IMG/VR virus record: IMGVR_UViG_3300010375_000001
Span: 1 to 64,000 of that record
Strand: one strand, 5' to 3'
Source of the DNA: a virus
DNA length: 64,000 bases
Made by a program: the position numbers and the translations under genes. Under the pieces are notes generated by a model. The model was not told where the DNA came from. It worked only from the letters and a program-made list of their open reading frames with translations, and did not search any database. Positions 21,550-60,230 of the stretch are shown here, piece after piece; position 1 is the stretch's first letter, and each line of letters opens with the position of its first letter.

Positions 21550-21601
21550 AAATCCCCGCCCGATTGCTCGAACGGGGAATCCCCATATAGATGTCTGTCT
21601 C
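21547..21601 (-). ncRNA. candidate small RNA antisense to the lysis operon intergenic region
   Basis: Minus-strand TTG-N20-TACATTTG (21636-21606) and hairpin TCCCCG...CGGGGA followed by T5. Confidence 0.4.
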
Positions 21602-21619
21602 GCATCAAATGTACAAAAA

Positions 21620-22084: not shown

Positions 22085-22590
22085 ATATTTTATCCATCAT
22101 CATAGGACTCGCAATCGCAATACTCATGGTACAGATAATCATTAATGTGCGCGAGCACTCGCACAGGCATACAAAAACATTCTTGATACTAAAATCTATC
22201 CGTTTTCATCACATCAAAATAGAGGGAATAATTATGTCAGCACAATTGAACGTGAACGAGCTCTTGGTTGGGACGCTCGGTCTCGTAGATCATGCCACAC
22301 AACAACCGATTACAGCTACGTTCACCAATGTTTCTGTATCCAGCAGCGACACGAGTATCTTCACTGCATCACTGGATGGCTCCGGCAACGTCGATGTGGA
22401 TGGCATATCCGCTGGTTCCGGCACCCTTTCCATTTCGGCGGATGCCACGTATGTCGATCCGGCTACTCAGGCCACGGTGACCTTCACGAAGGTTCTTACC
22501 GTCAGCGTAACCGTTTCGCCGGCTACTACCGCAACTGACCTCGTTGTCACGTTCGGAACGCCGCAACCGATCCCTGGTGGAGGGGTATAA
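22081..22590 (+). CDS. membrane-anchored Ig-like protein (possible internal start 22234)
   Basis: N-terminal TM helix followed by a beta-rich domain (SSSDTSIFT..GSGTLSISA). Confidence 0.5.
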   Translation: MNILSIIIGLAIAILMVQIIINVREHSHRHTKTFLILKSIRFHHIKIEGIIMSAQLNVNELLVGTLGLVDHATQQPITATFTNVSVSSSDTSIFTASLDGSGNVDVDGISAGSGTLSISADATYVDPATQATVTFTKVLTVSVTVSPATTATDLVVTFGTPQPIPGGGV

Positions 22591-22594
22591 ATAA

Positions 22595-22620
22595 TAAGGC
22601 CCCCTAATCCGGGGGCCTTA
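22595..22620. terminator. bidirectional terminator between convergent genes
   Basis: TAAGGCCCC...GGGGCCTTA inverted repeat. Confidence 0.65.
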
Positions 22621-22954
22621 TTAAATCTCGGATGTCGATGGTTGGTGGATATTCCTCCTGGTAAGCGCTTCGACTATACTCCCAGTTGCGTTTTCGTGCC
22701 ATTTCGTTATTGCACTTGAAGCACCATAGCTCGACCGTATGTCGATTGTAGTGATCTTCAATGAAACGCCTGATATCGAAACGATCGTAAACATGTTGCA
22801 CGGTTGGCATGTTTGCTGGAGGATGGCGTCGTTCGCCACTCATTTTATATCGTTGCATGAGCTGTATACCACAATTCGCGCAGGTATTGTGTTTTTGGAC
22901 CAACTGTCCTAGATAGAGTCTATTTCGCTTTCGGACTCCGTTTTTCGTAGCCAT
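22604..22954 (-). CDS. HNH-like zinc-binding endonuclease
   Basis: CANCG ... PTVQHVY ... ELWCFKCN. Confidence 0.55.
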   Translation of the reverse strand: MATKNGVRKRNRLYLGQLVQKHNTCANCGIQLMQRYKMSGERRHPPANMPTVQHVYDRFDIRRFIEDHYNRHTVELWCFKCNNEMARKRNWEYSRSAYQEEYPPTIDIRDLIRPPD

Positions 22955-22964
22955 TCCACAATAT

Positions 22965-23032
22965 AAAAAAAACCCGCTGCTTTGCAGCAGCGGGTCGAAC
23001 TAAAAACAAATGGGCGCTACGCTCAGATGGTT
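22965..23032 (-). ncRNA. candidate trans-acting small RNA (~65 nt) complementary to the shared early-gene motif CGAACTAAAAACAA
   Basis: Consensus promoter upstream; contains UUGUUUUUAGUUCG (23009-22996); ends in CCCGCUGC-N6-GCAGCGGG-U8 terminator. Confidence 0.65.
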
Positions 23033-23036
23033 TGTA

Positions 23037-23067
23037 CAAAAGTAAGGGTTTCAGGCAAATGTGCAAA
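23037..23067 (-). promoter_or_regulatory. Bacteroidota primary-sigma promoter
   Basis: TTTG (23067-23064), 19-nt spacer, TACTTTTG (23044-23037). Confidence 0.75.
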
Positions 23068-23075
23068 TTTTTGCC

Positions 23076-24515
23076 CTAAAATTTCTTTGCCCGTGCATTA
23101 TTAATGGCCAAATTCAAGCCCAGATCCCGGAGATAGGTCTCGAACTCCGTCACCGACTTATGCCGGCACCAAGCCTGTATTTCGGCTGCTGTGGCACCAG
23201 CGCGGAACAGATCGATTACCCGCTTGTGCTTCCATCCGTAGATCGTATAGTCTTCGTGGATGCCGTTGGGCTTACGCACATGCTCGCGCCAGAACCAAGC
23301 AAACCGGCTTTCTGCGTGGCATTCGGGGCCGGGTTTGTCTTCCTTACCGAAGATATAGTACTCGCCGGGCGCTTTATCTACCCCCATCTCTCTTAACATC
23401 ATTTCCAGCTCAGGATCAAGCGGGATATAGCCCCCTTGACCGCCCTTGGCGCGGAGCGGATCGATGTAGATCTGGCCGTCGGCGAAACGAATATCTTTAC
23501 ATTTCAGCTGTCGCGTTTCTTCATCGGGCCGGGTCAGGGTATAATACACCGTCATGCAGAACCGGTAGGTGGCTAGTCCGATATCGGATACCTTGTGATG
23601 AAGTAGCAAGTGCTTTACTCGCTCCGCCATGGCATCGTCATAAGCCGTGTGGCGCGTCTTGTCCACGTGAGTAAGCTTCTTCACCTTTTCAGCCGGCGAC
23701 TCCTTAATCCATTCTTCGTCCTTTACGAACTTAAAGAGGGTTCTGAGCTTGGTCACCTTATCGTTGTAGGTGCCCTTCTTCCAATCCTTCTCCTCGCGCT
23801 TGGTGCGCAACATATCATTCAGGTCATCCTTGGTGATGTCTTTGATAGAACCTTTGACCCGGTCTCCCAGCCATTCCCCTAGCAGGCGGGTAATCACTTC
23901 ATAGGATAACCTGCTGGAACTGCCTTCCGGATGAATCATCAAGAATTTTTTCATAGCAGCTTCGATAGTCACCTTTGGCTTGGTGTCCTTCGTAATAGCC
24001 ACCATGGGAACATGTTGGCCCGTCTGCTGGTTGTACTCGTCGATGATATCTTGGAATGGGTTTAACCCATTTTGCAAGAGTAACTTGACTGAATGCAAAA
24101 GCTCTTCGGCGCACTGCTCGTAGTCTTCTTCAGATACCGTATTGAGTTTACCCTTTACCCGGAAGCGGGCCCAGTCCAGCAGCTCGCCCTTTTTATTCAG
24201 CCATTCCTTTTTGATCAGGCCGGGCGGCAGCTTCTGGAAAAGGTCGGGTGGTATCCGGTGATGATACTCAACGTAGTGGCCATTCTTCGCCTCGACGAGG
24301 CGCACGCCATAATACCGGTTAGACTTCTTTGACACTCGTTTGACACTTGGGTTAATTAAAAATACGGAATTTCTGGTAATCAGCGTGTTGCAGGGATTTC
24401 CGTTGATCGCCTGCATCAATGGAACACTTTCGGCCGGGGAGCCGTCATTGATTTTGAGGTGGTTGCGATGAGACATGTTTTGTATTTTTGTAGATTTTTG
24501 ACACTCGTTTGACAC
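23076..24515 (-). CDS. int: tyrosine integrase (start codon uncertain)
   Basis: Core-binding region, LTRPDEE (R), AKGG (K), YGWKH (H-x-x-R variant), CRH, ETY (catalytic Tyr). Confidence 0.85.
   Translation of the reverse strand: MSNECQKSTKIQNMSHRNHLKINDGSPAESVPLMQAINGNPCNTLITRNSVFLINPSVKRVSKKSNRYYGVRLVEAKNGHYVEYHHRIPPDLFQKLPPGLIKKEWLNKKGELLDWARFRVKGKLNTVSEEDYEQCAEELLHSVKLLLQNGLNPFQDIIDEYNQQTGQHVPMVAITKDTKPKVTIEAAMKKFLMIHPEGSSSRLSYEVITRLLGEWLGDRVKGSIKDITKDDLNDMLRTKREEKDWKKGTYNDKVTKLRTLFKFVKDEEWIKESPAEKVKKLTHVDKTRHTAYDDAMAERVKHLLLHHKVSDIGLATYRFCMTVYYTLTRPDEETRQLKCKDIRFADGQIYIDPLRAKGGQGGYIPLDPELEMMLREMGVDKAPGEYYIFGKEDKPGPECHAESRFAWFWREHVRKPNGIHEDYTIYGWKHKRVIDLFRAGATAAEIQAWCRHKSVTEFETYLRDLGLNLAINNARAKKF
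24328..24515. repeat. probable attP arm-type sites: TTTGACACTCGTTTGACAC at 24328-24346 and 24497-24515
   Basis: Two identical 19-mers, each a tandem TTTGACAC with 11-bp period, flanking ~150 bp at the integrase 5' end. Confidence 0.55.
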
Positions 24516-24651
24516 CGAGTTTTGTACAATGATACAACGAACAGCACAATATTACAATAGTTTTTCGTATTTTTGATGGAGACCCGGCAAAGATCAACCC
24601 AGTTGAGAGAGCGCCACCCGAAAGAGTTTCGTTTCTAAACTACATTCTAAA

Positions 24652-24999
24652 ATGAAAATACCGAAGAAAAATATCATTCCTTTGGAGATGAGCGACGCGG
24701 ACATGAAGCGCTTTTGGGAGATGATTCAAAAAGGTGATCCGCGTTGCAGGTTTCAGCCGGGCGATCGAGTGTATAAGGCCAGAAGCATCGAAGAGAACGA
24801 ATTAACGCCAATAGGAACGAAGGGTACAGTTATAGGCGCCATGTATATAGATGACACGACTGCGATAGACAAAGATGCCTATTGGATATTTTGGGATGGT
24901 AACCCGATGGCCATTACATCTGTCGGCCGTCGCCTCGAAAAACTAGACGAGCCGCCGCAGAAGCTAAAACCCGGCCTGATGCCGTTTAAGATAAAATAA
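24652..24999 (+). CDS. hypothetical protein (SH3-like beta fold possible)
   Basis: RFQPGDRV..GTKGTVIG..YWIFWDG; followed by a terminator. Confidence 0.55.
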   Translation: MKIPKKNIIPLEMSDADMKRFWEMIQKGDPRCRFQPGDRVYKARSIEENELTPIGTKGTVIGAMYIDDTTAIDKDAYWIFWDGNPMAITSVGRRLEKLDEPPQKLKPGLMPFKIK

Positions 25000-25025
25000 A
25001 GAAGCCCCCAATCGGGGGCTTCTTT
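24999..25025. terminator. bidirectional terminator
   Basis: AAGCCCCC-AATC-GGGGCTT flanked by A and T tracts. Confidence 0.65.
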
Positions 25026-25266
25026 ATTTTATCTTACCTTTCTTCTGCTGTCGCCCCTTGGCGAAATAATCATTGACTGCCGCTATACAAGATTCAATAC
25101 ACTGCTCGATTTCGCCGCTTGCGCTTGAATATGGTGAGCTCATGTAACTCACAGGATAACGAATGATCACTAACCACTCGGGCGACCTGAAGCTTGCATG
25201 GAAATACATTTCAAGTCCACATTGGTGGGCGATGCAAAGTTGAACAAGATCGTTAAGTCTTTTCAT
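25024..25266 (-). CDS. hypothetical protein
   Basis: ATGA coupling with the macro domain gene. Confidence 0.5.
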   Translation of the reverse strand: MKRLNDLVQLCIAHQCGLEMYFHASFRSPEWLVIIRYPVSYMSSPYSSASGEIEQCIESCIAAVNDYFAKGRQQKKGKIK

Positions 25267-25715
25267 TTGATGGGGGGATATACGTAAATCTCCGCCTCCA
25301 AATCTTTCAGCCAGTATTCTATGAACGATTTTACCCGTTCCCAATCCAACCCTCCGTTGCCGCAACCCAAGGCGGGTATCGCAATAGAAGGGGTGTCTTT
25401 GGCAATAATCGTCTTTTTTAACGCGTTCAAGCCGCTGGCAATATAGTTGTATTCAGATGGATTCCTCCAGTGCCGTTTCGTCGGAAAGTTTATGATCAGC
25501 CGCTTGCCGTGTAGATCAGCCTCCTCGTAGCAAAACAGTTTACCGATGCCGATATGACCGCGCTCGCAGGCCTTCGCGTACGCGTCAAAATTGGCCGGAT
25601 ACCGCTCCTTGATCGCCAACGCCAAGCCTTTTCCCATCACGCCAACCAGGTTGACGGGGTTCACGATGGCATAGGCTTTCGTGTCGAGGATGTTACCGGT
25701 GCAGTAGGTGATCAT
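25263..25715 (-). CDS. macro domain protein (DarG/Poa1-like ADP-ribosyl hydrolase)
   Basis: GNIL..AIVNPVNLVGVMGKGLA, IINFPTKRHWR, SIAIPALGCGNGGLDW. Confidence 0.9.
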   Translation of the reverse strand: MITYCTGNILDTKAYAIVNPVNLVGVMGKGLALAIKERYPANFDAYAKACERGHIGIGKLFCYEEADLHGKRLIINFPTKRHWRNPSEYNYIASGLNALKKTIIAKDTPSIAIPALGCGNGGLDWERVKSFIEYWLKDLEAEIYVYPPIK

Positions 25716-25738
25716 GGTTAGCTTATATAATCCTTTTG

Positions 25739-25809
25739 TTGTCTGTGGGGGACTCGAACTCCCATCTACTGACCTAATGCCAGCATACTACCAATTATAC
25801 TAACAGACA
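25739..25809 (-). tRNA. degenerate tRNA with non-canonical anticodon loop (identity undetermined)
   Basis: Acceptor TGTCTGT/ACAGACA, D loop AATTGGTA, T arm GGGAG-TTCGAGT-CCCCC; anticodon stem CTGGC/GTCAG closes only 5 nt (ATTAG). Confidence 0.6.
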
Positions 25810-25812
25810 GAC

Positions 25813-25884
25813 CAACCGAGACGGGATTCGCACCCGCAACCTCCGGCGAAACGCGCGGACTCTAAAAATTAAAGCTACTCGGAT
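25813..25884 (-). tRNA. degenerate tRNA-like element
   Basis: ATCCGAG/CTCGGTT acceptor, TAGCT D-arm start, GCGGG-TGCGAAT-CCCGT T arm; irregular anticodon arm. Confidence 0.45.
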
Positions 25885-25921
25885 TTCTCAACGTCGCACG
25901 AACGACCTGAGCTATTTTCGC

Positions 25922-26203
25922 TTACTCCTCCGTCGCAGGCGGCGGTATGTACTCCTGCGGAAACTTTTCTCCAGTCCATAGGATCGGCTTATCAAGAGCC
26001 AGCAGCTGGTACTCTAAATCGGGACGAATATCCTCCAGATATTCACTACCTACGGGATGGCCTCTATCCGCATACGAATGTGGAACAGATTGCCCCTCAT
26101 CGTAGTAGCAAGTCCTGATTTCAAAATAAGGATCGGTACGCCCCAATTTCTTGGAGACTTCATCCGTCCGTTCTATAGCCATTAGCCGGTAATTCCAAGT
26201 CAT
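25922..26203 (-). CDS. hypothetical phage protein (MTWNYR family)
   Basis: MTWNYRL..FEIRTCYYDE..LALDKPIL pattern. Confidence 0.6.
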   Translation of the reverse strand: MTWNYRLMAIERTDEVSKKLGRTDPYFEIRTCYYDEGQSVPHSYADRGHPVGSEYLEDIRPDLEYQLLALDKPILWTGEKFPQEYIPPPATEE

Positions 26204-26307
26204 AAATTTGGTTTAAAAGAAGGGGGGCCCAGGACGGCCCCTTTGCCATAGGCTCGTCCCACCGCTGCTATGCCAGTCCCTTCGATGCGGCTGGCCCCCC
26301 TTTGGAA

Positions 26308-43328: not shown

Positions 43329-43697
43329 ATGTCGCCAATCGATTATGCTGCATTCACCGTGCAAGCTATAAGGGACCGCAACGGCGGCTTGATTCGTCTT
43401 AGTTTCACTCAGCTGGACATGGAGGTGTTGCATGCATTGATGCGGTTCGGTCGCGGCATGCGCATAGCGGAGATAGCGCGCGAGACGCGTGGGTTTGTGC
43501 ATCGCAATACTCTCCTTTGGTCATTGGACCGGTTGATAAAAGATAAGCACGTTGTTAAGACAGGGCTTAATCAACGGCGTTATGTATACTACTCCATCAC
43601 TCTCGAGGGTCGCGCTGTCTTGGACGATCTTAACGCGCGGATCATTGCCTTAGCGCATGCGGCGATGGGTGTACCGATACCAGAAGATAACAAGTAA
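43329..43697 (+). CDS. winged-helix (MarR-like) regulator
   Basis: MRIAEIARET..LLWSLDRLIKDKHV..YSITLEGRAVL. Confidence 0.7.
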   Translation: MSPIDYAAFTVQAIRDRNGGLIRLSFTQLDMEVLHALMRFGRGMRIAEIARETRGFVHRNTLLWSLDRLIKDKHVVKTGLNQRRYVYYSITLEGRAVLDDLNARIIALAHAAMGVPIPEDNK

Positions 43698-44038
43698 CAC
43701 TAGTGTCATAGGGGTTAATAACAGATGCCTACCAAGTTGGTAGGCATCGTTGTTTATACACATGAGAAGAGCGACGAAACAAAAATGTCCAGCGGCATCG
43801 GCTGGACATGCTCTAATCAAAAGACCATAACCAGTAAACCTTATCCTATGAGGGACAAGTTAAGAATTTCCTCCATTCCACCCAATTTTTTTTGTACAAT
43901 CTGTTGTACATTGTGTTGTGCTATGCGAATAGGGATAACGTATAGTATACCAAGGTTTTGCATGGGTTTCTCAAGTTTTTTGGCTCTCATGGTTTCTGGG
44001 TAATTATTATATTTTCTTGGGTGAACACCCGGTGAACA

Positions 44039-44070
44039 CTTGTTCACCCGGATTATTTAGCATAGCTTTG
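44039..44070 (+). promoter_or_regulatory. Bacteroidota promoter heading the 14-kb small-gene operon, overlapped by operator-like repeats
   Basis: (C)TTG 44039-44042, 20-nt spacer, TAGCTTTG 44063-44070; GGTGAACA-CT-TGTTCACC palindrome over the -33 box with a second GGTGAACA upstream. Confidence 0.7.
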
Positions 44071-44117
44071 TCTTCAGAAGCGGGATCAATCCCGCACCTA
44101 CTGGAATTTCAGCTGGT

Positions 44118-44300
44118 ATCTCCTTTGTGTGTACATCCGATAGCTCACCACGTTCATCGCTTGCATGTCTATGCTGTTTATGCGATATAGGGTATAACAC
44201 CCCGCCAACGTGGAAGAGGGTCGGACCTCTTCAGCGTGCTGCAACCAACGGGCCGAACGTGTGGGATAAGGTGTACGGCATAGCACAGATTAACGGGGAT
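44118..44300 (+). ncRNA. structured leader/ncRNA
   Basis: Nested pairings ATCTCC/GGGGAT, GTACATC/GGTGTAC, CACGTTC/GAACGTG enclosing GAAGAGG/CCTCTTC and ATCGC/GCGAT hairpins. Confidence 0.45.
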
Positions 44301-44364
44301 CACTCTTTACAAGCTCTACCGACGAACCGCGTAGCTTGCACAAGGGGCGAGCCCTTGAAGAGTG
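44301..44364 (+). ncRNA. mini-tRNA-like element
   Basis: CACTCTT/AAGAGTG acceptor; CAAGG-GGCGAGC-CCTTG T arm. Confidence 0.55.
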
Positions 44365-44379
44365 CTAAAATTGACAACT

Positions 44380-44790
44380 ATGTTTACTCAACAAGAAAGG
44401 GACCTCATGCAGGCGGCTATAGCCTCACATCTACTTTACTTATACGATACTCGGGCTATGACTTTAGAACAAAAAGAAGCGGAACGTGATAAGGTGAGAG
44501 CGCTATCAGCAAAGATTGACGCAACCGCTAATAAGGGACCATATAAGCCGATTACGTTAGTCCTAGACCACATCGGATGCCTTCATATGTTTGCGGGCGA
44601 TGTTCATCCAACTGGCCGGGATCATCCGAAGGTTAATGGCCGCGAAGCGGTAACGTTTATCCAGCGGCAAGAGGACATTGAGGGTATAATGGAGTATCTA
44701 ACAGATGACGAACAAGAGAATTTAAGCGGTGGTAATCCGGTTCGTACAACGTACGTTCCGGATTACTATATCATTCCCGTTCAATCCTAA
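44380..44790 (+). CDS. hypothetical protein
   Basis: ATG 15 nt after the element. Confidence 0.6.
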   Translation: MFTQQERDLMQAAIASHLLYLYDTRAMTLEQKEAERDKVRALSAKIDATANKGPYKPITLVLDHIGCLHMFAGDVHPTGRDHPKVNGREAVTFIQRQEDIEGIMEYLTDDEQENLSGGNPVRTTYVPDYYIIPVQS

Positions 44791-44839
44791 CCCCTCATTG
44801 CATAACGGCAATCTGCGTAGTTCGAGACTGCGCAGGGGT
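44790..44839 (+). ncRNA. mini-tRNA-like element
   Basis: ACCCCT/AGGGGT; ATTGC/GCAAT hairpin; GCGTAG-TTCGAGA-CTGCGC. Confidence 0.65.
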
Positions 44840-44854
44840 GCTAAACTTACACAC

Positions 44855-45133
44855 ATGAAAAAGATAGACGGAACTTCCCCTAAGCGTAATAGGTTTACCA
44901 ACCTTGAACAGGTCGCGCGGTTGCTTCTCAAAAGACTGATATCTTTCACCTATACACCTGCTTGTATTGTAGTCACTGATTCGGATAAGAGCGAAATGGC
45001 GTTTTACACAGCCACCTATGATTTTGAAACCAAAGAAGTAGTATTAATGATGGGTGCAAGCTATATAGCGGAAAAGCATTACATAGAAATCAAGCATAGT
45101 GATGCGGTATTATACATTGAACGCGCGAAGTAA
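44855..45133 (+). CDS. hypothetical protein
   Basis: ATG after the element. Confidence 0.55.
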   Translation: MKKIDGTSPKRNRFTNLEQVARLLLKRLISFTYTPACIVVTDSDKSEMAFYTATYDFETKEVVLMMGASYIAEKHYIEIKHSDAVLYIERAK

Positions 45134-45213
45134 GTCATTTCAGGGCTTCGATACTTAACACAGGGACCGCATGTCTATGCGGTCCTTTACTATTATAAAC
45201 AACATTTAAATAT

Positions 45214-45336
45214 ATGGACGCACTAAATGAGTTTATCCTAATCATCGCATCGGTTGCCGGGTTGGGCACGCTGATCTTTATGTATGGCTTCTTTAAGGAC
45301 TGCGAAGAGTCTGACAACACTTCCCCGCGTGGTTAA
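45214..45336 (+). CDS. 40-aa membrane peptide
   Basis: MDALNEFILIIASVAGLGTLIFMYGFF...; A-rich leader. Confidence 0.45.
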   Translation: MDALNEFILIIASVAGLGTLIFMYGFFKDCEESDNTSPRG

Positions 45337-45371
45337 AGGCCACCGTTAGCGGTCAGCGCGCTAACGGGGAG
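45321..45371 (+). ncRNA. mini-tRNA-like element (variant T loop)
   Basis: TTCCCCG/CGGGGAG; GTGGT/GCCAC hairpin; TTAGCG-GTCAGCG-CGCTAA. Confidence 0.5.
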
Positions 45372-45412
45372 CACTGCCTTACGGCAAGAATTCGAACTAA
45401 AAACAGATCATT

Positions 45413-45628
45413 ATGAAACACTTCTTTCAAGTGGACAATGACCACGTAGATCGTGTTCGGGAGATTGCGATGAAAAGCGCGCTACACATTGGAATCAGTA
45501 AGGAATGGGATACAAAGACGGATATGTATGTTACTAGTCTTCCCAATGAAGCCGATACGCTGATTAAGAGGCTTAAACGAAATGGCATTAGCGCGCGCAT
45601 TTATAAGCGCATCGACTACGCGAACTAA
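45413..45628 (+). CDS. hypothetical protein
   Basis: Follows the CGAACTAAAAACA motif. Confidence 0.55.
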   Translation: MKHFFQVDNDHVDRVREIAMKSALHIGISKEWDTKTDMYVTSLPNEADTLIKRLKRNGISARIYKRIDYAN

Positions 45629-45638
45629 AAACAACTAT

Positions 45639-45910: not shown

Positions 45911-46177
45911 CGAACTAAAAACAAGATGTATGTCCGATTTATTCATGTGGTTGCTGTTAGTCGGCTTCTATGCCGTGCTGATGCAGTTTCCCGGTTATAA
46001 ACCTAAAAGACGTAAGGTATGAGCTTGTATGTAGTGGAACTGGTAAACGGTGATATCGTTACCGTTTACGCGGATAGTGAGCAGGATGCAGCAGAGCAAG
46101 TGTAGGACACGGACCGCGTAGGCGGCGCAATGGACCGGTTAATGCCGGTCCTTTCTTTGTAACTAATATCTATTTAT

Positions 46178-46516: not shown

Positions 46517-46705
46517 ATGAAAGTAATAACTATTACGGGGAACGTTCCCGGCAAGGTGATTTTTAACTTAGAAGGTTTAACACAATTGCAAATAGCGTCC
46601 CTCTATAATGCATTAGAGGATGCTATTGCAAAAGAGCTATTCCATAATCCGACAAGGGGCGAATTGCTGAAACAGTTGCATGAAGCTATCGCCCCTTACT
46701 TATAG
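46517..46705 (+). CDS. hypothetical protein
   Basis: ORF in operon. Confidence 0.5.
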   Translation: MKVITITGNVPGKVIFNLEGLTQLQIASLYNALEDAIAKELFHNPTRGELLKQLHEAIAPYL

Positions 46706-46754
46706 GTTAACTGACGAGTCTTGAATAGACGAAAGGGGGCAACCCCTCTTAACC
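46705..46754 (+). ncRNA. type I hammerhead ribozyme
   Basis: Stem I GGTTAA/TTAACC; core CTGACGA; stem II GTC-TTGAATA-GAC; GAAA; stem III GGGG-GCAA-CCCC; CUC cleavage triplet ending at 46748. Confidence 0.85.
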
Positions 46755-47494: not shown

Positions 47495-47512
47495 CGAACT
47501 AAAAACAAGTGT

Positions 47513-47884: not shown

Positions 47885-47902
47885 CGAACTAAAAACAAGT
47901 GT

Positions 47903-48155: not shown

Positions 48156-48175
48156 CCGAACTAAAAACACATAAT

Positions 48176-49610: not shown

Positions 49611-49629
49611 CGAACTAAAAACTAGTAAG

Positions 49630-50593: not shown

Positions 50594-50615
50594 TTAGTAA
50601 ACTAAAAACAAGTAT

Positions 50616-51308: not shown

Positions 51309-51326
51309 CTAACTAAAAACAAGTAT

Positions 51327-51589: not shown

Positions 51590-51612
51590 AACGTTTCCGG
51601 ACCGTAACCGGA
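51590..51612 (+). repeat. AACGTT + T-arm-only hairpin (near-copy at 57295-57317)
   Basis: AACGTT-TCCGG-ACCGTAA-CCGGA. Confidence 0.6.
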
Positions 51613-51619
51613 CCACAAG

Positions 51620-52504: not shown

Positions 52505-52757
52505 TAAAAATAAACTGTTTGATATGGACCATCGGTGGACCAAAGGAAAATACGCGGCCTACCTCAACAAGGAGTATAGCAAGTGTACTTTGGAGCAAAT
52601 TCATAGAAAGTTCAGCTATCTCTATGATTCGGTGGCTGGGGAAAATGCGCTTACGAGGGCGTGGGTGGGAGGCAGGGTGGGCAGTTATGTCGCTGATCAT
52701 GATCCGGAGGCCTTTAACAATTGGTACGAAAAATGGGTTGCACAAAAAAAACGTTAG
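52497..52757 (+). CDS. hypothetical protein
   Basis: Overlap-coupled ORF. Confidence 0.5.
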   Translation: MNNKNKLFDMDHRWTKGKYAAYLNKEYSKCTLEQIHRKFSYLYDSVAGENALTRAWVGGRVGSYVADHDPEAFNNWYEKWVAQKKR

Positions 52758-52773
52758 CGGATCGTAACCGCGT
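52749..52773 (+). repeat. AACGTT + T-arm-only hairpin (identical copy at 56815-56839)
   Basis: AAACGTTAGCGG-ATCGTAA-CCGCGT. Confidence 0.65.
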
Positions 52774-52778
52774 GAAAT

Positions 52779-56197: not shown

Positions 56198-56833
56198 ATG
56201 GATCAATTAAAAAATGTTAGTAACGAAATTCCAGAGCGTTTCCCCTTTGAAAAGAGGAACTGGAAAGATTTAGATATGGATAAAATGATGGTCGAATATC
56301 AAGAAAAAGAACGATTACAGGCTCTCGGTATGTACGCCCATGTGAATTGGCAATGGGTAAGGCCGTTGGCCAAGTGGCTGGGCGAGCGAAGGGTATTAGA
56401 GGTTATGGCTGGCGCTGGATGGTTGGCAAAGGCGCTCAGGGAATGCGGCATATCGGTGGTTGCAACCGACGACTTTTCCTGGGGTGAGAAGAAAGGCTGG
56501 CAACTACAGACGGAAGTGGAACAGCTAGAGGCATCTGCTGCCATTCTTAAATACGGGGAAGAGTGTGATATTCTTCTTATCTCTTGGCCTTGGATGGATG
56601 CTGATGCATACAACGCTCTCACTAAATGGAACGAAGTCCATCCCGATGGATTAATCATCTATATAGGGGAGTATGGAGGAGGATGTACAGCCGATGATGA
56701 CTTTCACGACCATTTTGAGATGGTGAACGACAGCGGATTCGGAGAAGTGCAGGCTATCTATCGGCATTGGGATGGAATGCACGACCGCATTTACTTGGGA
56801 AAGTATTCATCTTTAAACGTTAGCGGATCGTAA
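56198..56833 (+). CDS. class I SAM-dependent methyltransferase-like protein
   Basis: VLEVMAGAGWLA, VVATDD, LLISWP, IYIGE..GCTADD.F. Confidence 0.7.
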   Translation: MDQLKNVSNEIPERFPFEKRNWKDLDMDKMMVEYQEKERLQALGMYAHVNWQWVRPLAKWLGERRVLEVMAGAGWLAKALRECGISVVATDDFSWGEKKGWQLQTEVEQLEASAAILKYGEECDILLISWPWMDADAYNALTKWNEVHPDGLIIYIGEYGGGCTADDDFHDHFEMVNDSGFGEVQAIYRHWDGMHDRIYLGKYSSLNVSGS

Positions 56834-56846
56834 CCGCGTATAGCTT

Positions 56847-57290: not shown

Positions 57291-57325
57291 TCTTAACGTT
57301 TCCGGACCGCAACCGGATCAACAAT

Positions 57326-58207: not shown

Positions 58208-58228
58208 CGAACTAAAAACAAGGAAACG

Positions 58229-59652: not shown

Positions 59653-60230
59653 GCCTTTGGTATTACAAAGTACGCCGTCTTCCAACAATTCCCATGGTGA
59701 TCGGTATGGTCTTCCTGCGGAAAGATATATCCTTCATAGTCCCGGACAAGATCTTCGCAGGCCGGGCATAAGAAACCGTCCTGGTGCCAGTTATCTACGA
59801 TCAGGATGCCGCCTTTTTGCAAGAGGATATCAATGGCGTATCGCATACATTCATATCGAAAGATACCATCTACAATGACGATGTCATAAGTCAATTCACC
59901 GACAAACTCCATCGGCGCTTCGACATATTGTCTCTCTTTCGTTCTATCCCCCTCATTCACTTCCTTCAAGAGCACAAGGCCATTAGATAACTGATGCTCC
60001 GCGCACTCTGCCTTAATCTCCATGTAAAACTCCCACTTGGTTTCAATCGTTACGACGATCTCACACTTTTTCCGAAGCCAAGCTGTCGATCTTCCTCCCC
60101 CATATTCGACCACTCTCATATTGCTTAAATCCCAACGTTCCAATACTTGTAGAAACGGATGGGTCAGCCACGGATAACAAAGACCGTTTGATGGGTCTAT
60201 CTTCTGCCAATCGACAAGTTCTTTATTCAT
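59649..60230 (-). CDS. class I SAM-dependent methyltransferase
   Basis: VVEYGGGRST.W, YDIVIVDG..R, GGILIVDN. Confidence 0.8.
   Translation of the reverse strand: MNKELVDWQKIDPSNGLCYPWLTHPFLQVLERWDLSNMRVVEYGGGRSTAWLRKKCEIVVTIETKWEFYMEIKAECAEHQLSNGLVLLKEVNEGDRTKERQYVEAPMEFVGELTYDIVIVDGIFRYECMRYAIDILLQKGGILIVDNWHQDGFLCPACEDLVRDYEGYIFPQEDHTDHHGNCWKTAYFVIPKA

Follow-up and report, generated by a model that had tools for sequence, protein, structure and literature searches.

A candidate antisense RNA beside the integrase of a likely Bacteroidota phage, complementary to a tag carried by ten early-gene start regions

Beside the integrase gene of a rhizosphere phage lies a short minus-strand unit, promoter to terminator, whose predicted 68-nt RNA contains the exact reverse complement of a 14-nt tag; ten small early ORFs carry this tag a few nucleotides ahead of their ATGs. 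The complementarity between tag and anti-tag is probably functional in one direction or the other. The best explanation at present, given an even chance of being right, is a trans-acting antisense RNA, furnished both from its own promoter and within the integrase 3' UTR, that would pair with the tagged early mRNAs. A second phage, only distantly related, has its own tag together with its own anti-tag. That the RNA is transcribed, that it pairs in vivo, whether its effect is positive or negative, and when it acts (in lysogeny, in immunity, or in early shutoff) are matters that we infer. The features are collected in Table 1.

The phage, called G000 where it must be told apart from its relatives, is a 74,021-bp IMG/VR virus record with direct terminal repeats that is judged complete. 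It was assembled from a rhizosphere metagenome. The window, that is, the whole stretch of DNA analyzed here, consists of its first 64 kb. In DNA sequencing runs, the phage appears only in the source assembly and, as small pieces of identical sequence, in three further samples, which offer no informative variation over the locus. A Bacteroidota host is likely, and only likely, because the terminase is merely 28-29% identical to the terminases of Flavobacterium and Cellulophaga phages. Two minor features of the minus strand may be mentioned here. The segments 25738-25809 and 25813-25884 hold a tRNA whose anticodon, UUA, would decode the stop codon UAA (ARAGORN; Rfam tRNA model, 45.2 bits) and, directly upstream of it, a second, weak tRNA-like match of 22.7 bits, below threshold. 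At 21553-21613, a -7 box in intergenic DNA, TACATTTG, is combined with a minus-strand terminator (11-bp stem, T5); this unit lies opposite the region where the endolysin gene starts and may give rise to a short cis-antisense transcript.

Among 11- and 12-mers, the tag, CGAACTAAAAACAA, is the one that recurs most often in the genome, and in the reverse orientation it has zero occurrences. Counted on both strands of the window at up to two mismatches, it has 11 copies, every one on the + strand, while shuffled sequences average 0.58 and never exceed 3; its repetition is not random. Six copies are exact, four have one mismatch, and one has two. The genome's remaining 10 kb beyond the window hold no additional copy. 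Apart from the copy beside the integrase, to which we return below, the tags all lie between 45 and 58 kb, 4 to 7 nt upstream of ATGs that open ORFs of 30 to 215 aa. The original prediction had listed 14-mer matches before these early ATGs, and all of them were found, five of them exact. Over the full 14 nt, the sites at 49611 and 51309 agree at 13 of 14 positions, and the site at 50598 agrees at 12 of 14, with 12 contiguous bases from 50600.

What lies just upstream of the tags? Most begin 0 to 2 nt past the closing stem of a Y-shaped two-hairpin element. These elements had been described as mini-tRNAs preceding most sites. The arrangement is indeed there at most of them, but the tags at 45621 and 50598 have no structured element directly upstream, and neither ARAGORN nor the Rfam tRNA model recognized any of the Y-shaped junction elements as a tRNA. 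In local folds of the ten early-gene sites, the 14-mer is unpaired every time. Its CGAAC part is exact in 8 of the 10 sites, even where the end of a coding region overlaps it. Two other roles for the tag were considered and set aside. A link to stop codons was rejected, the internal TAA of the tag being in frame with the upstream ORF at one site only (45621). A promoter for a phage RNA polymerase or an ECF-type sigma factor was ruled out as well: the tags are too near the ATGs, and in the proteins scanned neither an RNA polymerase nor a sigma factor turned up.

The tagged operon itself is headed by a -7 box, TAGCTTTG, downstream of the inverted repeat GGTGAACA...TGTTCACC (44020-44075, + strand). 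From this layout, the head of the operon is probably an operator-controlled early promoter. Some junctions of the operon have features of other kinds. At 46705-46754 (+), a gene junction without a tRNA-like element scores 21.8 bits with the type I hammerhead ribozyme model, short of the gathering score of 34 (E 0.28). Farther along the operon, a second family of junction repeats, AACGTT(T/A)(C/G)CGGA(C/T)CG(T/C)AACCG(G/C), forms a small hairpin 5 to 9 nt before four ATGs (51590-51619, 52750-52778, 56818-56846, and 57296-57325, all +).

Table 1. Features of the window that bear on the tag and its complement (positions in nucleotides of the window unless kb is given)
Feature	Position	Strand	Remarks
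Structural and lysis module	0.06-22.6 kb	+	terminase, portal, endolysin
Block with tyrosine integrase, macro-domain protein, and NinI-like phosphatase		-	
ORF116, CxxC...CxxC zinc-finger (HNH-like) protein	22604-22954	-	ATG 10 nt past U8
Predicted 68-nt RNA, start site to end of U8	22965-23032	-	start site is a prediction
Putative intrinsic terminator	22965-22996	-	11-bp stem (7 G-C pairs), 4-nt loop, U8; hairpin 22996-22971, T8 22972-22965
Seed UUGUUUUUAGUUCG	22996-23009	-	reverse complement of the 14-mer tag, exact 14/14
-7 box TACTTTTG	23037-23044	-	exact to the TAnnTTTG consensus of Bacteroidota sigma-A
-33 element TTTG	23064-23067	-	exact; 19 nt upstream of the -7 box; nine bases past the integrase stop
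Tyrosine integrase	23076-24515	-	Pfam Phage_integrase, PHROG 1
Operon of many small ORFs	44-58 kb	+	
Tag, 13/14	45393-45406	+	ATG of 71-aa ORF 6 nt on
Tag, 14/14	45621-45634	+	ATG of 73-aa ORF 4 nt on; overlaps stop codon of upstream ORF
Tag, 14/14	45911-45924	+	ATG of 30-aa ORF 5 nt on
Tag, 14/14 plus flanking T	47495-47508	+	ATG of 109-aa ORF 4 nt on
Tag, 14/14 plus flanking T	47885-47898	+	ATG of 40-aa ORF 4 nt on
Tag, 13/14	48157-48170	+	ATG of 215-aa ORF 5 nt on
Tag, 13/14	49611-49624	+	ATG of 88-aa ORF 5 nt on
Tag, 12/14	50598-50611	+	ATG of 63-aa ORF 4 nt on
Tag, 13/14	51309-51322	+	ATG of 83-aa ORF 4 nt on
Tag, 14/14	58208-58221	+	ATG of 44-aa ORF 7 nt on

The eleventh copy, an exact one at 22996-23009, sits in a gap of 121 nt that separates the integrase gene from ORF116, both of them on the minus strand. 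It is not a translation leader, because it is followed by an 11-codon ORF only and has minus-strand genes on both sides; no + strand gene or promoter is nearby. Read on the minus strand, the gap has the organization of a small RNA gene. The promoter TTTG-N19-TACTTTTG that had been claimed downstream of the integrase is there to the letter (23067-23037), and so is the GC hairpin with its U8. The RNA between them, put at about 65 nt in the original prediction, does correspond to a promoter-to-terminator unit, but its predicted length is 68 nt. The part of it that was taken to be unpaired and to act as the seed is the exact reverse complement of the tag, yet it is only partly free, with a mean unpaired probability of 0.51 in the isolated predicted RNA.

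TAnnTTTG and TTTG make up the sigma-A promoter consensus of the Bacteroidota (PMC7366714, PMC9723704), and the -7 box occupies -12 to -5 in Flavobacterium (PMC9723704); the predicted transcription start, 23032, follows from setting the box in the same place. Across the window, full TTTG-N17-22-TAnnTTTG matches number 3, with about 0.7 expected from the 31 -7 boxes, and the one at 23067-23037 is the sole intergenic match among them. Other intergenic -7 boxes stand where promoters are expected, at 24568 (+) and at 44063 (+), the latter at the head of the tagged operon. The locus has both an sRNA gene's own housekeeping-type promoter and its Rho-independent terminator, at the level of sequence. 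The hairpin would terminate minus-strand transcripts only, because on the + strand A8 comes before it and no T-run comes after it. A reading of the hairpin as attP or as a tRNA 3' end was rejected, because its loop is 4 nt long and features of a T-arm are lacking.

The predicted RNA begins with 22 unstructured nt, which are followed by the anti-tag and then at once by the hairpin; promoter and terminator are 36 nt apart. It has no ORF inside, and its minimum free energy of -25.6 kcal/mol (z -4.4) is terminator-driven. An Rfam cmscan of 22500-26300 at E values of up to 5 gave no C4 match, and at the locus itself no family reached threshold, the sub-threshold matches being terminator-driven too. 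With a flanking T included, the seed matches the sites at 47495 and 47885 at 15 of 15 positions. When the locus is compared with the genome by BLAST, its likeness to the ten junction sites ends at the edges of the tag, with one extra T at three sites. The duplex of tag and seed is A-U rich and comes to about -16 kcal/mol for the 14-mer. RNA.duplexfold, run with the whole RNA or with its 5' 37 nt, did not rank the targets first, as the G+C-rich 5' part forms strong chance duplexes; duplex energy was dropped as evidence, since such crude energies do not single out the targets. Taken together, the anatomy of promoter, seed, and intrinsic terminator fits a trans-acting antisense RNA. As a side observation, CCAUCUGAGCGUAGCG in the 5' part of the predicted RNA (23015-23030) has a 16-nt complementarity, with one G-U pair, to 64597-64612 of the same genome, beyond the end of the window. 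The partner there is the minus-strand mRNA of an unannotated 132-aa ORF (64390-64789), and at a BLAST E value of 0.69 the match may be due to chance.

Of course, the seed need not be confined to one transcript. The integrase gene has no terminator other than the hairpin and U8 at 22996-22965, so the 3' UTR of its mRNA must carry the anti-tag. On the other side, ORF116 is a real gene, because it has a homologue in the relative G001 (E 3e-8); it matches no Pfam family at E<0.1, and no separate promoter for it is visible in the sequence. The promoter-terminator unit may also, or even primarily, be a leader of ORF116 with an attenuating terminator. To read it as the 3' UTR of the integrase mRNA or as the ORF116 leader is just as plausible, and it may not be a stand-alone sRNA gene. 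These points do not remove the antisense reading; several RNA species could carry the seed.

Is the same arrangement seen in other phages? IMG/VR searches with the terminase and the integrase led to eight more or less distant genomes. By terminase identity to G000, these include G002 (50%), G001 (48%), G003 and G004 (both 42%), and G005 (32%); by integrase identity, G006 (46%) and G007 (36%). G009 is 56% identical to the terminase of G001. Integrase homologues of up to 60% identity occur on contigs of 43 to 79 kb, those of 54-60% on Logan/ENA contigs of 43 to 76 kb. The protein search with the integrase found no JGI/NCBI relative above 46% identity, and a search of viral contigs for close relatives with the integrase alone found nothing. 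The 14-mer of G000 is above chance in none of the IMG/VR relatives, and an exact scan of viral contigs for it gave single chance matches only.

G001, on the other hand, has a tag of its own. Its early genes carry TTAAAACACTT 2 to 6 nt before nine ATGs (53.1-57.2 kb, all on the minus strand), and each of these tags is preceded by a hairpin and a T-run. The complement of TTAAAACACTT occurs twice, 30 nt apart, on the strand from which the tags are transcribed, at the 3' end of a non-coding leader of about 600 nt that heads the tagged early operon. The leader RNA contains, in order, anti-tag 1 (with the core AGUGUUUU), a hairpin, anti-tag 2 (AGUGUUUUAA), a G+C-rich hairpin, a U-run, and the tagged first gene. 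In the predicted fold, neither anti-tag is base-paired; the second adjoins the terminator hairpin. G001 has no integrase. The covariation of seed and tag that the original prediction looked to in related phages is seen insofar as G001 matches its own tag with its own anti-tag, but this concerns one distant relative only, and the anti-tags lie in a different genomic place.

In a scan of six genomes, the 22 nt 5' of every predicted terminator were searched for 9-mers repeated elsewhere. The 22996 locus came out as the clear top in G000, with 10 other copies, and the 58021 locus in G001 had 9 copies. Comparable scores in G001 came only from a word of the CRISPR repeat, from one of low complexity, and from a junction when read on the opposite strand, and the four genomes without a strict tag had nothing comparable. 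Judged by composition, the chance expectation of the complement in terminator flanks is about 2e-6 for G000 (exact 14-mer) and about 2e-3 for G001. The five relatives without a strict tag, G002, G004, G006, G007, and G009, have no anti-tag, and no strict tag occurs in G005, G008, or G009. G006, the relative by integrase, has a terminator after its integrase gene but neither promoter nor anti-tag there; in G007, both tag and anti-tag are absent. A possible anti-tag of G004 at 59659 was discarded as a chance match inside a coding region. The orientation of the two orphan copies is instructive. That of G000 shares the DNA strand of the tags, with local transcription inverted, while that of G001 is on the opposite DNA strand, with local transcription the same. 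Both are thus antisense at the RNA level next to a terminator, as predicted by RNA-RNA pairing and not by models of a sense relic or a DNA site.

These data bear on the view that the copy at 22996 is an orphan sense copy, either a relic of recombination between junctions or a + strand RNA element, and has no antisense role; the neighboring promoter and terminator would then simply serve ORF116 and the integrase. The copy is indeed on the same DNA strand as the others and likewise starts directly after a helix. The + strand also folds better here: 22996-23038 reaches -9.7 kcal/mol (z -2.2), with three G-U pairs, compared with -4.0 kcal/mol (z 0.15) for the minus strand. Such folding would be expected of a + strand RNA element, although an unstructured minus strand would suit a seed as well. 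But the + strand has no gene or promoter nearby, just the 11-codon ORF, and the homology to the junctions stops exactly at the tag, where a relic would keep some flanking similarity. The helix, moreover, is a minus-oriented terminator preceded by A8 rather than a tRNA-like element, and nothing in the view predicts that G001 should repeat anti-tag and terminator on the opposite DNA strand. We consider it unlikely. What about a reader of the tag that is not RNA at all? The complementarity at 22996 would then be irrelevant, and the tag would be read by the ribosome, as an A-rich, Kozak-like enhancer, or by a phage protein, such as an RNA-binding translational repressor or a nuclease of the T4 RegA or RegB type. 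Related A-rich leaders do exist. In G004, tRNA-like junction elements are followed by ACTAAAACAAAC and then the ATG, and a leader with ACTATAACCAATG is common to late or structural genes in G000 (14530 and 11929, +) and in G006 (17902, 21507, and 52156). The core of the tag, ACTAAAAACAA, resembles ACTAAAACAAAC of G004 and ACTATAACCAA of the late genes of G000 and G006. Bacteroidota, too, initiate translation without Shine-Dalgarno pairing (PMC9723704). On this comparison of leaders, the ACTAWAAMCAA-type A-rich leader is a family-wide translation signal without need of an RNA partner. Since the A-rich core is family-wide, a reader with sequence specificity is needed only to account for the CGA extension and for how exact the tag is. 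It is these that a generic enhancer leaves unexplained, with CGAAC exact in most sites, coding-end overlap included, and the exact complements beside terminators in two phages find no explanation either. A reader other than RNA strikes us as decidedly improbable.

The pairing might also work in reverse, with the anti-tag in the integrase 3' UTR or the ORF116 leader as the regulated site and the tagged early mRNAs as effectors. A duplex beside the protective hairpin would leave the integrase mRNA open to nuclease attack, much as in lambda sib retroregulation but in trans; or else read-through into ORF116 would be changed. Either way, the output of integrase or ORF116 would be tied to the activity of the early operon. 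The anti-tag is necessarily in the integrase mRNA, which has no other terminator; ORF116 is a real gene that begins 10 nt past U8 without a promoter of its own; and ten tags facing one anti-tag look like many effectors and one target. Yet a dedicated consensus promoter before the seed would be purposeless in pure retroregulation, the anti-tags of G001 are in the leader of its early operon in a phage without integrase, and the control of one gene hardly explains the strict conservation of ten tags. This direction of pairing, too, has little probability in our estimation.

How, then, would the preferred antisense RNA act? The host-type promoter at 23067-23037 (-) would drive a 68-nt RNA ending at the hairpin and U8 (22996-22965), and the integrase mRNA, released at the same terminator, would carry the anti-tag sequence as well. 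The 14 nt just 5' of the terminator stem would pair with the tags, which lie at about -18 to -5 of the ten small early ORFs. Such pairing, over 12 to 17 bp, would cover the region bound by the 30S subunit; at 47495 and 47885, a G-U pair and two Watson-Crick pairs would stretch the duplex to 17 bp. Because the duplex would fall within the 30S footprint, repression of initiation is the likeliest effect. The duplex would in addition take up the 3' trailer of the tRNA-like element, which would no longer be single-stranded, and interference with 3' processing is conceivable, since the duplex would start where the closing stem of that element ends. One RNA would in this manner lower the translation, or alter the processing or stability, of the whole tagged set. 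Its expression in lysogeny and a role in immunity are, for now, pure conjecture.

Antisense control of this general kind has precedents among phages. The c4 RNA of P1 and P7 (immI) and the CI RNA of satellite phage P4 (Rfam family C4) are short RNAs that base-pair, through their single-stranded stretches, with several sites in early transcripts of the same phage. The target sites are at or near ribosome-binding regions, and the sequences of seed and target define immunity specificity. c4 RNA is cut by RNase P from the leader of its operon, and its two sites control one downstream gene or terminator. The predicted RNA of G000 is likewise complementary to several start regions in its own early transcripts, at ten sites and over 12 to 15 contiguous bases, and the anti-tags of G001 are in the leader of the operon that they match, as in P1 and P4. 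The G000 unit differs from c4 and CI in having no Rfam C4 match, in lying 22 kb from the operon, beside the integrase and behind its own predicted promoter, and in setting one 14-nt seed against ten dispersed targets, each before a different gene. No + strand transcript of G000 carries the anti-tag. The hosts differ as well, that of G000 being likely a member of the Bacteroidota, which initiate without Shine-Dalgarno pairing. The G000 unit probably works like P1 c4 or P4 CI but stands outside that family.

Other comparisons are more partial. T4 RegA is a protein of loose sequence specificity that shuts off the translation of many early mRNAs together. G000 would resemble it in having one phage factor for many early initiation regions, but the candidate reader is an RNA that relies on exact complementarity. 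Lambda sib is a cis-acting RNase III hairpin just downstream of int that forms only in read-through transcripts. The RNA element of G000, too, is just downstream of the integrase and could decide the fate of integrase mRNA; unlike sib, it is complementary to sequences 22 to 35 kb away. P22 sar and lambda OOP, phage antisense RNAs of 68-77 nt with intrinsic terminators, block translation or trigger decay of a phage regulatory mRNA (PMC12197685). They are encoded in cis, opposite a single target, whereas the G000 RNA would be encoded in trans and complementary to a short tag that recurs ahead of many genes. On the side of the host, Bacteroides sRNAs target translation initiation regions through extended seeds, with no need of Hfq (PMC7366714). 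GibS of B. thetaiotaomicron, for example, has a TAnnTTTG promoter, an intrinsic terminator, and a single-stranded extended seed and is independent of Hfq (PMC7366714). It is, however, a host chromosomal sRNA with two metabolic targets, imperfect pairing, no repeated tag, and no phage context, in all of which G000 differs. A literature search found no paper that describes a unit of this kind for phages of Bacteroidota.

Should the RNA be transcribed and pair in the predicted way, at least 10 early genes would come under the control of one 68-nt transcript by way of their common leader tag. Such an RNA would play the part that the protein RegA has in T4, or would multiply many times over the design of the immunity RNAs c4 of P1 and CI of P4, in a phylum that has neither Shine-Dalgarno-based initiation nor Hfq, and it could explain how such phages define the specificity of immunity. 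A wider speculation, which we regard as doubtful, is that the early mRNAs are cut from a polycistronic transcript at the tRNA-like elements, are left with a common 5' tag, and are switched as a set by one phage RNA. Tag and anti-tag would have diversified together (CGAACUAAAAACAA in G000, UUAAAACACUU in G001), giving RNA-defined immunity groups among Bacteroidota phages. Such a tag-and-reader regulon would couple RNase P/Z-type punctuation with antisense control.

The relatives yielded a few observations in their own right. Two of them have CRISPR-like arrays: in G001, about 22 copies of a 36-nt repeat with a period of about 66 nt occupy 68,970-70,400, and in G007, 21 copies of another repeat occupy 43,600-45,600. 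In G004, the tRNA-like junction elements between 21,250 and 27,850 share an acceptor-like stem, CCCCCGAACTGC...GCAGTTCC, and have canonical T-loops such as GGTTCGAGTCC.
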